IMG/VR virus record: IMGVR_UViG_3300044695_006747
Span: 96,001-160,000 of that record
Reading direction: 5' to 3' (one strand)
DNA: 64,000 nucleotides
DNA from: a virus
The notes under the pieces are model-generated. The model saw only the letters and a list, made by a program, of their open reading frames with translations, made no database searches and was not told the DNA's origin. The translations under genes and the position numbers were made by a program. Of this stretch, positions 4,778 through 58,295 are shown one piece after another (position 1 is the stretch's first letter; each line of letters starts with the position of its first letter).

Positions 4778-6970
4778 TTAAATTAGACAAGCTCCGCCAG
4801 CACAACTAATTTCTTCTATTCCAGCAGTATTGTCCTCTGTTTCCAACAGTTGTGTATAATCTACCTTTTTATACGTATCATACAAATCACAATATATTTT
4901 CCAATTATATACATCTTTCATGCAGTATGTGAGTCTCTTTAGGTCTCCGTCAAAATATTTTCCTGCAAAGTTTTTCATCTTAGTTATAAACAATAGTTTT
5001 TCTTTTGAGTCCGTTTCTTTTGCTTGGTTCATGCTTACATAATCACAAGCAGCCCAAAGATTATTATCAAAAGCATTTAATGCTAACTCAATAAGCCCAG
5101 AGCACCACAGGGCTGCATCTCCGTATTCTTTGACTATTTCTCTACTAGTATAAACGGTAGTAAATGGTGCTTGAGGATAGTCTTTATCTCCACTTTGAGG
5201 AATAAGACTAATACCAGCAAAATATTTACGATTGTTATAAATATATTTGGTTACATCGTCCCATTCGTCTGGTTTAACGGTAACAGTATTACTAACATTA
5301 TGACTTAAATATTCCTGAGTACATAGACCTTTATTTTTTCCAGAAAATACCCAATTCTTTTGAGTATCTTTAACGATGCCCAACATATCTACTGCTGGTA
5401 GTTGATTCTTTAATTTTGCTCCGTCTGGTACTTCTATTGGAAATTTTATGACTTCATCAGTATTATTAGCCGACCACCTTGATTTTTCACACGCTTGCGG
5501 GTTATAATTTTTGAAGTGTTGGTATGGAGCCTCTAAAATATTGGCCTGTACGTGTCTGATATAGCGTTTAGCATGGTGCGGGTGAATGCCGGAACTAGTT
5601 CCAAGCATACTTGAAGATGTTCCTTCTGGTTTTAAGCAAGTAACACGAGCGGCCTGATTAATACCAATCTTTTTGGCCATTTCTTTATTTGTATCAACTG
5701 CTATCTTGGCTCCTGCTTTTAATACCTTCTCTGATAGTACTAAATCGTGTTTTTCCATGATACCAGTTAGAGAAACACCAAGCAGAGCTTCTCTTTGAAA
5801 GATTTTGCAACTAATTTCTCCTAGATAATCTAATTTAGTAAAACCAGCCTGTAGTGTTCCTATAATTGCTGCGGCTTTGCAACGATCATAAAAATCATTT
5901 TCGTCCTCAATAGACGAGCAGTTGATGGTAGATAAGTTACAACCCTGCCAACCGCTCTTGCCTGTTGCTTCATCAACGGGCCACATACCTACCTCAACAC
6001 AGGGATTAAAAGTCATTTCTGTTGAATCACTCCAAATAAATCCAGGCTCACCAAACTCTTTTACACTTTCCATCAACGTTTGAAATTGCTCAAGTGTTGT
6101 TTCATCTTTTAGTAATAGAGCAGAATTATTGCTTCTTGCTCTTTGAGGATTATCCATATACCAATTGCCTGTCTTAGCTTTTGCCATTTCTTCATCATCA
6201 GCACTAAACAATGCCAAACTAGCTGATCGTCTTACACCACCACTTAAAACAGCGTCACTACTATGCATGATAATATCATAAGCATCAATTGGTCTTAATT
6301 TTTTCTGACCATTAGCTATACAACGGTCTAATAGAGTTCTTATTTTTTCTAGACCATTTGCTAGTGGTTCAAATCCTGGTGCTTTACCAACACCAGAACT
6401 AAGATCAGAGCCTTTGGGTCTAATATTACTATAGTCGAATACAACGTATGTGTTTTTATACATTTTGAATTCTTCTATAGGTTTACTAAAATAGCTACTA
6501 AGAAGAACGCCTAATGCATCGGCCCATCCTTCTATACTGTCTTCGATAACATATTTTGTTCCTTCTCCATTTTCAATTTCGTGTTCTAGTGATGGAAGTT
6601 TAGCAACGTGGTGTTTTTGAACACTAAATCCTGTGCCACTACCACATAGTAACAACCAAAAACACTCTTGAAAAAAACGTAGTCTATCACAATAGGAACT
6701 TGTGCAATTATAAATTTTTGCATGACGCTTTAGGATAGGATCTCCTCCAAACTGGAGTCCTCTTTGACTTCCTAGTATTTTCTTTTTATACATCATATCG
6801 TATGCCCAGTTAATCTCATCAGAGATTCCTTTATCGGCATACATTGTATGCATCATATTTTTAACGCGCTCAACCGCTTCTTTCCATGTTTCTCTTCTGT
6901 TTTTTTCTGGTATCCAACGAGCATATTTACTAACAAACGTATAATTTTGAAGCTCCTGAAGCGCGGACAT
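4778..6970 (-). CDS. nrdJ: Class II (B12-dependent) monomeric ribonucleotide reductase
   Basis: YNC, GGVRRSA, NPCVE, GCNL, KPEGT, C-terminal CAGGAC redox pair. Confidence 0.92.
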   Translation of the reverse strand: MSALQELQNYTFVSKYARWIPEKNRRETWKEAVERVKNMMHTMYADKGISDEINWAYDMMYKKKILGSQRGLQFGGDPILKRHAKIYNCTSSYCDRLRFFQECFWLLLCGSGTGFSVQKHHVAKLPSLEHEIENGEGTKYVIEDSIEGWADALGVLLSSYFSKPIEEFKMYKNTYVVFDYSNIRPKGSDLSSGVGKAPGFEPLANGLEKIRTLLDRCIANGQKKLRPIDAYDIIMHSSDAVLSGGVRRSASLALFSADDEEMAKAKTGNWYMDNPQRARSNNSALLLKDETTLEQFQTLMESVKEFGEPGFIWSDSTEMTFNPCVEVGMWPVDEATGKSGWQGCNLSTINCSSIEDENDFYDRCKAAAIIGTLQAGFTKLDYLGEISCKIFQREALLGVSLTGIMEKHDLVLSEKVLKAGAKIAVDTNKEMAKKIGINQAARVTCLKPEGTSSSMLGTSSGIHPHHAKRYIRHVQANILEAPYQHFKNYNPQACEKSRWSANNTDEVIKFPIEVPDGAKLKNQLPAVDMLGIVKDTQKNWVFSGKNKGLCTQEYLSHNVSNTVTVKPDEWDDVTKYIYNNRKYFAGISLIPQSGDKDYPQAPFTTVYTSREIVKEYGDAALWCSGLIELALNAFDNNLWAACDYVSMNQAKETDSKEKLLFITKMKNFAGKYFDGDLKRLTYCMKDVYNWKIYCDLYDTYKKVDYTQLLETEDNTAGIEEISCAGGACLI

Positions 6971-54523: not shown

Positions 54524-56409
54524 ATTTTATCTATCTTTCTTTGTGGTTTAGGAATTAGTTTTGGTTTGGCTTTATCATCTGATTGATTATTATTACCTCC
54601 ACCACCATTGTTTGGTTTTGGTGGCTCCTCATAATCTTCATACCATTTATACGAGATTGGAGTATTAAGTTCTTCATTTGCTATTAATGCCCAAGGAGTA
54701 TCTGGATAATTGTCTACTACAAATCTTAAATATTTTTGAGATCCTTCATAACATTTTTTGAGTAAACTATTATTTAGATCGAAGTCCTTAGATGGCATTA
54801 GTATCCATATATTAGATTTTGGATCTTTCTTTTTCAAGCCGGTTTTCGCTTCTGCTAAAACCAGATTATAACTCTCTATTCTACATTTTGTAGATAGTAT
54901 ACGCCCCATAGCAAGAGCGTATGAAACTTTCCATCTATCTTCTAGTGTAGAATATGATGATTCGCCACTTAGTAATGTAGTGTAGATTTGATTAATTTTA
55001 GGTTCAAGTTTAGCAGAAAATCTTTGTGCCATATTTAGTTCATTTACAAAACTACCCTCATCAAATGCTTTGAATCGTAGTGTTTGTTCACCAGAAATAT
55101 TAAGGGGAATTGATGATGCTTGAACTAGTGCTTTTTTACTAGCATGAGACTGTGCTTCTTTATTTTGTATACCATACGATCTATAGTCTGGTCTATACTT
55201 AGTCATAATTTCGTGATCAAAAAATCTGGAAATGTATGATGATAGTGGGCTAATCTGTTTTTTATCTACTCTAGTATTTCCCCTATTAGGATGCACACTA
55301 AAATATAAGCCTCCAGTGTCCAAACAAAGTTTCGACAAAGCAAACGGGCCAAACCCACTGTCTAATGTTTCTTTATCAATTGGTAAACTATTAATATCTA
55401 AAATCATATCATATAAAGATTCTGGGCCTTGATTAATTTCTACCCATTTTTCAGTTTGATCGTACTTAGGATCAAATTCCACAAACTTAAATTGTGCTGT
55501 ATTTTTGCCAAATGGTGCGGGGTTTCCAACAACATAAATCATAGTCGCTTTCGATCTTGCTAGATTAGATACTACATCTAAATATTGAAAATCATCACCA
55601 ACTTCGTCTGTAAATACAATCACTAATAATCTGGAACCAAAAACGTATTCGGATTTGCATACTTCACCAATAGCAGAGAATGTATTTTCGATTCCGCTTT
55701 CATCTAGCACGATTGATTCTACTGCTGTCTTTAGTGTTGACGGATCATCTGTGAGTTGTCTTGTGATTTTGGTAAATTTTTGCCCAAAACTATAAATTCC
55801 ATGTTTAATATTATAAGTAGTATTAGCAAATTCTAGTTCTTGTAATATCTTTTGAAAACGATCAGCAATTAATTGTCTTTGATGACTCAAACTAACGCTG
55901 GCATCTAGTAGCCAAATAACGTTTGTGTCTTTAGATTCCCCGCTTTTGATAATCTCAACAGTCAATCTGTCCAATGCTCCACCACTAGATGATTGTGATG
56001 AAAATCCTGAACCTAAATTTGAAGAGACTCCAGATAATGTTTGACCAACTAAATCAGACGAAAATTCTGAGCCAACTTCTTCCATAGGTTCAACGGTTAA
56101 ATTAGAAGGAACATCAATATCATTAACAGATATAGATGAATCCTGTTGTTGTTCAACTATTACTTCTTCAGTTAACGAAGAATTTTTATCATCAAATGTG
56201 AAAGTTTCTGGAATATTAACAGGAATCTCAAAATCTACGTTTTCTTCAATGACGCTTGATGATGTTATTGTTAAAGGTTGTTCTGAGTCCAGTGCTTTTC
56301 CTATCATTAGTGATAGCAATAACAGAGCCATGCTGTTAATCACAAATGCTATACAATAGTGTTCTGTTGTTTCTGAGGATAACATATCCCTAATTTGACG
56401 AATCATCAT
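54520..56409 (-). CDS. Membrane-anchored vWA-domain protein (Planctomycete-like)
   Basis: N-terminal TM; MIDAS WLLDASVS; ENTF; FTDEVGDD; FGPFALSKL; TPWA. Confidence 0.75.
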   Translation of the reverse strand: MMIRQIRDMLSSETTEHYCIAFVINSMALLLLSLMIGKALDSEQPLTITSSSVIEENVDFEIPVNIPETFTFDDKNSSLTEEVIVEQQQDSSISVNDIDVPSNLTVEPMEEVGSEFSSDLVGQTLSGVSSNLGSGFSSQSSSGGALDRLTVEIIKSGESKDTNVIWLLDASVSLSHQRQLIADRFQKILQELEFANTTYNIKHGIYSFGQKFTKITRQLTDDPSTLKTAVESIVLDESGIENTFSAIGEVCKSEYVFGSRLLVIVFTDEVGDDFQYLDVVSNLARSKATMIYVVGNPAPFGKNTAQFKFVEFDPKYDQTEKWVEINQGPESLYDMILDINSLPIDKETLDSGFGPFALSKLCLDTGGLYFSVHPNRGNTRVDKKQISPLSSYISRFFDHEIMTKYRPDYRSYGIQNKEAQSHASKKALVQASSIPLNISGEQTLRFKAFDEGSFVNELNMAQRFSAKLEPKINQIYTTLLSGESSYSTLEDRWKVSYALAMGRILSTKCRIESYNLVLAEAKTGLKKKDPKSNIWILMPSKDFDLNNSLLKKCYEGSQKYLRFVVDNYPDTPWALIANEELNTPISYKWYEDYEEPPKPNNGGGGNNNQSDDKAKPKLIPKPQRKIDKI

Positions 56410-56749
56410 GTTTCCTATTTTTGGCCATAATTAAATAGTTTACAGCCTTAATTACACCATCCAGATCATCTCCTAATTTTCCTAGGCCGGTATTACATGG
56501 TTCACATAACCAACCTCTAAAACTGTCATCGTTATGATCGTGATCCAAACACCATTTGCGTGGAACTTTTCCACAACATTCGCAAAGTTCTGGTTTATTT
56601 GGTGCTTTTTTATGAAGTTTGCTTCTTACTTTGCTGTGTTTTCTAACACAACTTCTGCATCTACTATCAAGATTATCTTTGTACATACTGTGTTTGGGAA
56701 AACTTTTAGGATTTTTTCGTTTTCCACAATAAGTACAAATTTTTCTCAT
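56390..56749 (-). CDS. Endonuclease VII-like nuclease
   Basis: CECCG...LDHDH...RGWLCEPCNTGLG. Confidence 0.85.
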   Translation of the reverse strand: MRKICTYCGKRKNPKSFPKHSMYKDNLDSRCRSCVRKHSKVRSKLHKKAPNKPELCECCGKVPRKWCLDHDHNDDSFRGWLCEPCNTGLGKLGDDLDGVIKAVNYLIMAKNRKHDDSSN

Positions 56750-56865: not shown

Positions 56866-56882
56866 ATTATTCTTTCTTTAAG

Positions 56883-57236
56883 TGGAGGCGGGGGAAGTCG
56901 AATCCCCGTCTTGTGATAACTTTAATATAATCTCTACAAGTTTATTTTGTTCATAAATTTTGAGAAAGATTAAAGAACAAACAACATTCATCTTTCCGTA
57001 CCAACTAATCTCAGGCTAGAACCCGTTGGCTATTCTAGCAGCCGAAGGATTTTACGACAATCTTTTGAACGCTACCTTCATCGCTTTCTAAGATTGTTGC
57101 TGTTATTTAATTAAGCAGCAAGGGCTAACTGATTTGTGCCAGTTAAAGCATTTGGTAGATTTTTAAAGTGGCCTTTCCACCAACCACTACTTGCTAATTA
57201 TACCAAATTTTATCCAATCGATACCGTTACGCCCCC
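56883..57236 (-). ncRNA. ssrA: tmRNA
   Basis: Acceptor GGGGGCG/CGCCTCC with G3-U70 and A73; T-arm GGGGA-TTCGACT-TCCCC; tag ORF 57140-57111 GTNQLALAA* after TAACT. Confidence 0.93.
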
Positions 57237-57439
57237 TAATCTTTATTATTATACACAAAATCCTTATTTTGTAAAGTCTCTAGTTTGAGATAGAGATATT
57301 CAAAAAATACTCTATACATCATCTTCTCTTTTTCTAGAAGTTTGATTTCCTCATATTGTAAAATATTAAACCCAATTGATATTGATAACAAACCAATTAT
57401 GAAAGTATAATACGGTAGGTGTTTTGAGCGATTAGTCAT
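57236..57439 (-). CDS. Small membrane protein
   Basis: One TM; stop abuts tmRNA 5' end. Confidence 0.55.
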   Translation of the reverse strand: MTNRSKHLPYYTFIIGLLSISIGFNILQYEEIKLLEKEKMMYRVFFEYLYLKLETLQNKDFVYNNKD

Positions 57440-57455
57440 ATAATATTTACTTGTC

Positions 57456-58022
57456 TTGAATCGAATATGGTGTATGATACTTTATCAAAGTTATAACAAG
57501 GAGATTCGGCTTATGAGTCAATGCGTCAACTGTTTCAAAGAAACAAATAATCCAAAGTTTTGTTCCAGATCATGCGGTGTGTCATACAATAATCGAATAA
57601 AGCCTAAAAGAATTGCAACAAAAAAATATTTTAAGTGTTTATATTGTAAGAAGAAAACTCAATTTTATACTAATAATCCAAGAAAATATTGTTCAAAAAG
57701 TTGTAGGATAATACATAATAGAAATACTTCAGACAGTCTCATAGAAGTGAATGGGTTTGGCAGTGGTCATTATCATAATGCAACAATCAGAAAATATTTG
57801 ATAAGAAAACATGGGAATAACTGTATGATCTGCGGACAATCTGGAGACAATTGGAATGGTAAACCTATTACGCTTATTGTGGATCATATTGATGGAAAGT
57901 CCAACAATAATATGCTTGATAATCTCCGTATTGTTTGTCCAAACTGCGATTGTCAATTGCCTACTTATAAGGCTAAAAACAAAGGCAACAGTTCTAGATC
58001 ATATTTTATAGTTCAAAAATAA
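57456..58022 (+). mobile_element. Free-standing HNH homing endonuclease (probable start 57513)
   Basis: Two FCSRSC/YCSKSC Zn modules; CMICG; VDHIDG...NLRIVCPNC; RBS AAGGAG; inverted. Confidence 0.85.
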
Positions 58023-58023
58023 A

Positions 58024-58295
58024 TAGCGCGTGTTGGAGTCGAACCAACCTTTTGAATACCTTATCTTACCACTATAACTTTCGTTACCCAAATGGTTTGT
58101 GGTCTGGACTTTATCTTTACCATAACTTTAGTTTTAGGTACTGCCTGTCAAGTCTCTACACCTTACTATTTAATAGTCTTGGCTCGGTATTAGCATTTTA
58201 AAGCCTTCACCGAATTTAAGCAGTTCTACTCTACTGGTTTCCCAGTAGGCACTCATAATTTTAAGAGTATGTGCAACTACCGGCTGCAACGCGCC
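58024..58295 (-). tRNA. trnI: Intron-containing tRNA; spliced anticodon UAU (Ile)
   Basis: Exons 58295-58263 and 58064-58024; acceptor GGCGCGT/ACGCGCT, T-arm GTTGG-TTCGACT-CCAAC, anticodon arm ATACT-CTT^ATAA-GGTAT. Confidence 0.82.
58065..58262 (-). mobile_element. Group I intron (IC3-like, 198 nt, no ORF)
   Basis: P1 CTT/GAG with U-G, P2 GAAA loop, P3 CTGCTT/AGGCAG, P4 TTCGGT/ACCGAG, P6, P7 GAGACT/AGTCC, P8, P9 GAAA loop, terminal G, P10 TTAT/ATAA. Confidence 0.92.

Follow-up and report, generated by a model that had tools for sequence, protein, structure and literature searches.

Collaborative homing has been defined and reviewed for the psbA and nrdB cases (PMC3984707, PMC2790892) and for the F-CphI family (PMC6083498). 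In the psbA case the target of the enzyme is the place in intact alleles where the intron would insert, and the intron gives immunity and is mobilised in trans (PMC3984707). In phage T4 the free-standing HNH endonuclease mobE mobilises the neighbouring nrdB intron, which carries a defunct I-TevIII, in a form of trans homing by co-conversion (PMC2790892). Endonuclease genes are also found among phage genes for transfer RNA (tRNA). T4 SegB, a GIY-YIG enzyme, recognises the T-loop motif GGTTCRANTCC and its homing carries neighbouring tRNA genes along (PMC2330249), and F-TflI, F-TflII as well as F-TflIV are encoded in the tRNA gene cluster of T5 (PMC2330249, PMC5714182), F-TflIV being listed among the HNH (His-Me finger) enzymes (PMC5714182). 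In a 2014 review all phage introns then known resided in protein genes (PMC3984707). Here, we describe a free-standing HNH endonuclease gene that abuts a tRNA-Ile(UAU) gene split by a group I intron without an open reading frame (ORF). The locus is found in a stretch of 64,000 nt, hereafter the window, of IMGVR_UViG_3300044695_006747, an IMG/VR virus record of 186.8 kb that is complete and has terminal repeats. An earlier note on this DNA had proposed the endonuclease and the intron as a collaborative homing pair. We find that the HNH gene is first of all an element of tRNA-Ile(UAU) loci, whose primary partner is the tRNA and not the intron, and that its presence beside the two common tRNA types coincides with the intron, which fits a conditional form of such collaboration.

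The proposed logic of the pair is that of F-CphI and the group I intron, likewise without an ORF, in psbA of cyanophage S-PM2. The differences are that a tRNA gene and not a protein-coding one is the host here, that the enzyme belongs to the zinc-finger HNH proteins and not to those with an EndoVII motif, that most HNH relatives sit beside intronless, divergent tRNA alleles, and that cleavage is a prediction. As with mobE, a free-standing HNH gene stands beside an intron unable to move alone; nrdB is a protein gene and its intron holds a defunct ORF, whereas the present intron is ORF-less and located in a tRNA anticodon loop. The resemblance to SegB, likewise a free-standing homing endonuclease of a phage tRNA region, is functional only. 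Although the SegB target motif GGTTCRANTCC also lies 10–20 nt from the HNH stop codon, the enzyme has an HNH fold and no GIY-YIG domain, its gene always abuts one convergent tRNA species (Ile-UAU), and the SegB system is intron-free. The T5 F-Tfl genes are similarly situated among phage tRNA genes, and the similarity of T5-like genes to the HNH protein is confined to the HNH core (amino acids 104–158, about 45% identity), the N-terminal fingers being unmatched. The intron itself resembles the classical tRNA-Leu(UAA) intron “Leu.3Ug” (doi 10.1101/2020.01.27.920355) in its insertion after U34 (CUU/...g/A), its small size, its lack of an ORF and its U-1.G pair with a GAGU guide, the host here being a phage tRNA-Ile(UAU). 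Free-standing endonucleases in phage tRNA clusters and collaborative homing are thus already known. What appears to be new is a clade of zinc-finger HNH enzymes that keeps to the 3' end of genes for tRNA-Ile(UAU), the apparent effect of this clade on tRNA allele diversity, and the location of a candidate collaborative pair within a tRNA gene.

When viral contigs were scanned with the HNH protein, 29 loci with 51–96% identity were retrieved, to which two more, L090 and L115, were added (L-numbers denote related loci in viral contigs that were compared with the window). At all 31 HNH loci the gene abuts a convergent tRNA-Ile(UAU) gene, called by ARAGORN, whose 3' end is 0–5 nt from the HNH stop codon, and at several loci the stop codon is formed by the last bases of the tRNA. 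This adjacency is not a matter of chance, since the 29 retrieved loci as well as L090 and L115 all display it. In the window the HNH gene (57513–58022, plus strand, 169 amino acids) ends in a TAA stop codon at 58020–58022, and a single base (58023) separates it from the discriminator A of the convergent tRNA at 58024. The earlier note was accurate in this regard, having placed the end of the plus-strand HNH gene at 58022, the tRNA 3' end at 58024, and the gene between the transfer-messenger RNA (tmRNA, 56880–57236) and the tRNA (58024–58295). The contexts of the 31 loci vary and include backbones with a SpoU-type methylase gene and the tmRNA, backbones without SpoU, tRNA arrays (L009–L012) and a 340-kb contig (L027). 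Homologues with 31–36% identity are present in the cultured phages iF6 and Xoo-sp15, Synechococcus phage MA01 and Erwinia phage pEa_SNUABM_50, all of them in or beside tRNA arrays, and in metagenomic phages family members at 30–40% identity abut or neighbour other tRNAs, with and without introns.

The HNH gene is part of a cassette of about 575 bp (57445–58022) that fits between the tRNA 3' end and the start codon of a small conserved ORF of 67 amino acids (ORF67, 57439–57236, minus strand), this start codon being the second boundary of the insertion. In HNH-less relatives ORF67 follows about 15 nt after the tRNA, and presence or absence of the cassette is polymorphic among close relatives. 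When the window is compared with L003, nucleotide identity of about 94% begins near 57445 and is limited to 57445–58022, with the tRNA and the other flank at 70% or less. HNH identity is also incongruent with that of SpoU, as in L038 (SpoU 95%, HNH 57%) and L006 (SpoU 70%, HNH 81%), and the tRNA types are dispersed across the HNH phylogeny. Between SpoU and tmRNA the relatives contain nothing (48 nt), a tRNA alone, a tRNA with HNH, a tRNA with a C-terminal HNH remnant (70, 56, 48 or 31 amino acids) or, in L048, a tRNA with an 18-nt scar of the HNH 3' end; HNH without a tRNA in this interval was never seen among the relatives. Lake-water metagenomes contain DNA of the window phage, with the window allele present exactly and at low depth, along with contigs that lack HNH (57332>58020) or the whole tRNA-HNH-ORF67 block (57195>58386). 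Judged by this pattern of acquisition, erosion and loss, the mobile cassette is probably that of a free-standing homing endonuclease, with predicted cleavage activity, and the niche that it occupies in the loci compared is where phage tRNA-Ile(UAU) genes have their 3' end. The same site receives other genes as well: L041 carries, in the same position and orientation (5656–6261, minus strand), an unrelated 201-amino-acid endonuclease with helix-turn-helix (HTH) and HNH_4 domains, the stop codon of which overlaps the tRNA-Ile 3' end, so that the intergenic site tolerates insertions and is a hotspot for different homing endonuclease genes. A 19-nt longer tRNA leader, common to the window and some HNH-bearing loci, was considered as a part of the cassette and rejected, as it is found also in the HNH-less L149 and L163 and is absent from other HNH-bearing loci.

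The HNH ORF was listed from a TTG codon at 57456, but the likely start is the ATG at 57513, which comes 9 nt after the ribosome-binding site AAGGAG (57498–57503) and yields the 169-amino-acid product. The upstream part of the cassette (57445–57512) also includes a weak promoter-like site on the plus strand (57451–57478). PHROG 1271, “HNH endonuclease”, matches the protein with E 6.4e-22, other HNH PHROGs match too, and the Pfam families HNH_3 (18.5 bits) and HNH (14.8 bits) score under their cut-offs. In an alignment of 15 HNH sequences, down to 45% identity, D124-H125, N137 and N144 are invariant, as are C104, C107, C142 and C145, a predicted zinc site that frames the C-terminal HNH (His-Me) nuclease. 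Two CxxC...CxxxC fingers precede it (C4/7/17/21 and C42/45/60/64). The protein thus has three predicted zinc sites and not the “two Zn modules” mentioned in the earlier note. The nuclease half has accumulated many synonymous and few amino-acid changes, a sign of strong purifying selection, and the finger region changes fast; the enzyme is maintained and probably active while its DNA-binding part is evolving. An AlphaFold (AF2) model reached a confidence (pLDDT) of 76, and a Foldseek search of the PDB with this model gave weak matches, none with E≤0.001, the best of which were nearly all HNH nucleases (Cap5, McrA, PacI, GVE2 HNH, Cas9 HNH). A sequence search of the PDB with the HNH protein returned nothing relevant.

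The tRNA-Ile(UAU) genes at this locus are of very different sequence types, and their diversity follows the presence of HNH. Alleles free of HNH have a median pairwise identity of 97%, although SpoU in their backbones is only 67–74% identical. For the HNH-linked alleles, types B–F, the corresponding median is 53%, and these types occur only with HNH, an HNH remnant or a scar. The contrast is seen even between near-identical neighbours, as L038 and L040 have flanks that are 95–98% identical, yet L038 carries a type D tRNA with HNH and L040 a type A tRNA alone. From the uniformity of the former group and the diversity of the latter, the tRNA body looks like the target of the enzyme.

In the window the tRNA-Ile(UAU) gene consists of exon 1 (58295–58263, minus strand, G1 to U34) and exon 2 (58064–58024, A35 to discriminator A73, CCA not encoded), with an intron of 198 nt (58262–58065) between U34 and A35; it is ORF-less, as stated in the earlier note. 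The intron matches Rfam RF00028 with 58.7 bits and E 2e-14 (gathering score 50), and a search of its own genome again gave 58.7 bits. It was not reported in a whole-window Rfam scan at the gathering threshold, because of speed filters, and ARAGORN with intron options made no call on the unspliced gene. The splice sites were determined by enumerating U/G pairs, running ARAGORN on the spliced products, of which the accepted one is tRNA-Ile(UAU), and confirming the result against intact alleles. Intact related alleles differ from the window gene by exactly the 198-nt stretch, and a DNA contig from the lake metagenomes lacks exactly the intron (joint 58063>58262, skipping 198). The 5' exon end C32-U33-U34 pairs with a GAGU guide (U-1.G), the intron 3' end is the omega-G at 58065, and the junctions read CUU|A...AAG|A, the guide being kept across intron family members in different tRNAs. 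By these features it is a group I intron of the tRNA “3Ug” type, with predicted self-splicing. The exons are of type A with two compensatory pair changes, at 3:70 and in a T-stem pair, relative to other type A alleles, which argues that the tRNA is functional. In a metatranscriptome, a single contig of 253 nt (58030–58282, five mismatches) spans both exon-intron junctions at precursor length, and neither HNH nor SpoU was covered; the contig is a weak hint that the precursor tRNA is transcribed and is uninformative on splicing or HNH expression.

Our census of intron and HNH covers about 130 related phage sequences. Intact type A loci had no HNH, and no scar either, in any of 46 viral contigs from at least 15 flank contexts, and intact type G loci had none in 44 contigs from at least 21 contexts. 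Intact A/G alleles with HNH thus number 0 of 90 (at least 36 flank contexts), against HNH or a remnant in four of the five intron-bearing ones (three of four lineages). Intron-bearing alleles make up about 5% of A/G alleles. The four are the window itself (type A, HNH intact), L192 (type A, intron 90% identical to that of the window, HNH remnant of 48 amino acids), and L090 and L115 (type G, HNH intact at 63% identity, convergent and abutting). L090 and L115 represent one lineage and not two independent backbones. In its exons this lineage matches the commonest intact G allele exactly; the intron is the sole difference, and HNH is carried by this lineage alone. The HNH proteins of the window and L090 belong to different clades. 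When metagenomes were scanned for the end of a type A or type G tRNA abutting an HNH end, one contig was returned, and it was intron-bearing. Exon versus intron identity was rejected as a discriminator between models, since the D-arm is where types A and G mostly diverge even among intact alleles.

The explanation that we favour, with a confidence slightly above even, is that HNH cuts intact tRNA-Ile(UAU) genes and that its carriers are immune through either a divergent tRNA body or the intron, which would constitute conditional collaborative homing in a tRNA gene. Most likely, the enzyme would cut the intact, common-type tRNA-Ile(UAU) genes of co-infecting phages without HNH, and repair from the carrier genome would copy the cassette and the adjoining tRNA into the victim. 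The carrier would itself have to hold a resistant tRNA, having either a divergent body or a standard body split by the intron. Situated 41 nt from the cassette, the intron would be co-converted in the repair and would thereby gain a mobility that it cannot encode. The anatomy of the locus, the exclusive adjacency of HNH to tRNA-Ile(UAU), the mobility and decay of the cassette and the allele counts are direct observations. We infer that the enzyme cleaves, that it cuts inside the tRNA gene close to where the intron is inserted, and that the intron makes its carrier immune; the natural association fits, and does not prove, that the intron shields the tRNA gene from HNH. A more specific version, which we regard as possible but somewhat short of an even chance, is a natural arms race over the tRNA gene, in which an HNH homing endonuclease specialised for this purpose would strike the standard phage gene for tRNA-Ile(UAU) at or near the anticodon loop. 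Wholesale replacement of the tRNA body by some carriers would then explain the six unrelated tRNA-Ile(UAU) sequences at one locus.

Several observations weigh against this explanation. The tRNA-Ile(UAU) is intronless at 28 of the 31 HNH loci, including those of the closest HNH relatives (96% and 95% identity), and L097, with a type G tRNA, has the intron and no HNH. Since the two elements segregate in this manner, HNH can do without the intron. Across the family, intron and HNH occur in all four possible combinations, which counts against an obligate pair by the measure of the earlier note itself, namely whether the two segregate independently in related genomes. The outcome of the co-occurrence check that it had named is thus mixed, co-occurrence being lacking across the family and found within types A and G. 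An ORF-less intron beside a free-standing endonuclease gene, as it had described, is present, and its proposal of a collaborative homing pair is partly supported, faring well where matched alleles are compared. Furthermore, only three or four independent intron-bearing lineages are known. The type F tRNAs of L014 and L047 share with A/G a core of 15–17 nt around the insertion site, yet lie beside intact HNH, so recognition would have to reach beyond this core. The cut could fall anywhere in or beside the tRNA, and one or two founder haplotypes combined with co-conversion could yield the association without immunity. In the loci with an intron core, HNH-like matches were near intron-bearing tRNAs in 5 of 35 cases and near intronless tRNAs in 2 of 36, numbers too few for enrichment.

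Such linkage alone is the most serious alternative, and one that we consider rather unlikely. HNH would then target the tRNA 3' end or T-arm, or the empty junction, in the manner of SegB, the insertion itself would immunise, and the intron would be a passenger, present with HNH in A/G alleles by descent from a founder haplotype and copied along in repair tracts. The insertion at the tRNA 3' boundary in every locus, at most 25 nt from the conserved motif GGTTCGACTCC, is consistent with this account, as SegB recognises that motif and often cuts just after CCAR (PMC2330249). The 41 nt between intron and HNH provide a rival cause for their association, divergent donor tRNAs would be co-converted anyway for want of homology, and the many intronless HNH loci, the tolerance of HNH by type F with its A/G-like anticodon-arm core and the presence of more distant family members beside other tRNAs, with and without introns, all speak for it. 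However, linkage leaves unexplained that none of the 90 intact A/G alleles has HNH or a scar and that both independent pairings of an A/G tRNA with HNH are intron-bearing in spite of the rarity of the intron. Nor does it account for the confinement of the HNH clade to UAU tRNAs with unrelated bodies, or for the hyper-diversity of the HNH-linked tRNAs. It is also conceivable, though improbable in our view, that HNH is not homing here at all and is an inactive relic or has another role, such as rearrangement or amplification of the tRNA/tmRNA region or action on host DNA, its adjacency to the tRNA marking only where insertions are tolerated. The unrelated HTH-HNH_4 gene of L041 demonstrates such tolerance, and in a 2026 paper SegB is reported to drive the amplification of anti-defence tRNA loci (PMC13096335). 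Against a relic or another role speak the intact ORF with its invariant catalytic and zinc residues, the strong purifying selection on the nuclease domain, and a discrete cassette that has moved between backbones and has been gained, eroded and lost as homing endonuclease genes are; site tolerance would also not explain the exclusive specificity for UAU.

If HNH does cut intact tRNA-Ile genes, homing endonucleases would shape phage tRNA sequences and leave the same anticodon on unrelated bodies, ORF-less tRNA introns would have a concrete route for movement, and collaborative homing would extend from protein to tRNA genes. The natural alleles would in that case be ready-made sensitive, resistant and intron-protected substrates, and a compact zinc-finger HNH enzyme with probable tRNA-gene specificity would be added to those known. 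Should the arms race over the anticodon loop prove real, it would be the first collaborative homing in a tRNA gene and would offer a mechanism for the spread of Leu.3Ug-type introns among phage U34 tRNAs. With linkage alone, the locus would still be a clear example of a homing cassette tied to a tRNA gene, as in T4 and T5.

The same intron family interrupts tRNA-Ile(UAU) after U34 in L090/L115, L097 and L192, and occurs also in phage tRNA-Lys(UUU), tRNA-Leu(UAA) and tRNAs with a UUA anticodon. The last are found in large phage contigs, within tRNA arrays, at L098, L113 and L123 (intron core near 4929, 7617 and 564, respectively, in intron orientation) and at L121, where the tRNAs splice to an apparent UUA anticodon and are called “tRNA-Stop(tta)” by ARAGORN. 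They may be ochre or amber suppressors of phages with recoded stop codons, the splice site being ambiguous by one base. Arrangements compatible with a like pairing of intron and HNH at tRNA-Leu(UAA) were seen in L095, L112 and L122. The phages of L115 and L149 have a second copy of the intron family, with 75–80% identity, elsewhere in the genome (L115:10922–11179 and L149:7921–8112), presumably in another U34 tRNA. The exact 5' junction pattern had no match among viral contigs, and a 15-nt 3' junction pattern gave 24 new loci that were rejected as chance matches, all without intron or HNH. The tRNA of the window and related type A alleles are non-canonical in having G1.U72, or an acceptor stem of 8 bp if the upstream T is counted, a single nucleotide from the acceptor to the D stem, two bases ahead of the anticodon stem, and a variable loop of 7 nt; U72-A73 is kept in all tRNA types at this locus.

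The genes surrounding the cassette are arranged on the minus strand in the order SpoU-type methylase, promoter, 31-nt leader, tRNA-Ile(UAU), ORF67 and tmRNA, and HNH, between the tRNA and ORF67, is the sole plus-strand gene of the locus, with all neighbours in the opposite orientation. The SpoU-type gene occupies 58897–58352 (Pfam E 4.5e-24) and its stop codon is overlapped by the tRNA promoter TTGACA-17-TATAAT (58355–58327), which in a promoter scan agreed with the sigma-70 consensus at 12 of 12 positions and is kept in all related loci; the leader fills the interval from promoter to tRNA (58326–58296). A family match was sought for ORF67, and there was none in Pfam. The tmRNA (57236–56880), a conserved flank of the locus, was not called by ARAGORN despite a score of 117.5 bits with Rfam RF00023, and a promoter-like site agreeing at 11 of 12 positions lies at 57275–57248 on the same strand. 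Beyond it, a gene of the Endonuclease VII (EndoVII) family (56390–56749, minus strand, Pfam E 3e-11) flanks the tmRNA and is kept across related loci. It is syntenic in HNH-less relatives as well, and a presence/absence pattern was not seen for it among the related loci. The EndoVII motif is the one used by F-CphI, the classic collaborative-homing enzyme. Right after the HNH stop codon, the antisense of the tRNA T-arm followed by CTTTTGAATA (58032–58048, plus strand) scores as a terminator-like hairpin that could terminate transcription of HNH. This might be among the reasons why HNH and tRNA converge and abut.

Two further phage loci with HNH homologues contain unusual tRNA genes. On the 340-kb contig (L027:4481–4917, minus strand), HNH with 51% identity abuts a tRNA with a long variable arm and a UAU anticodon (Rfam tRNA 43 bits), and directly upstream is a tRNA(CAU) interrupted, apparently between positions 33 and 34, by a group I intron (Rfam 63.9 bits). 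This locus was considered as a second pair of HNH and intron and was dismissed, because the intron resides in the neighbouring tRNA(CAU) and HNH abuts the intronless long-arm tRNA(UAU). In Erwinia phage pEa_SNUABM_50 (MT939488.1), a gene of 122 nt annotated as tRNA-Lys(ttt) (L088:1319–1440) is located 60 nt upstream of the HNH homologue and is interpreted by ARAGORN as tRNA-Ala(tgc) containing an intron of 39 nt. Another long “tRNA” nearby has an insert of 51 nt, and these long genes may be short-intron tRNAs in jumbo phages.

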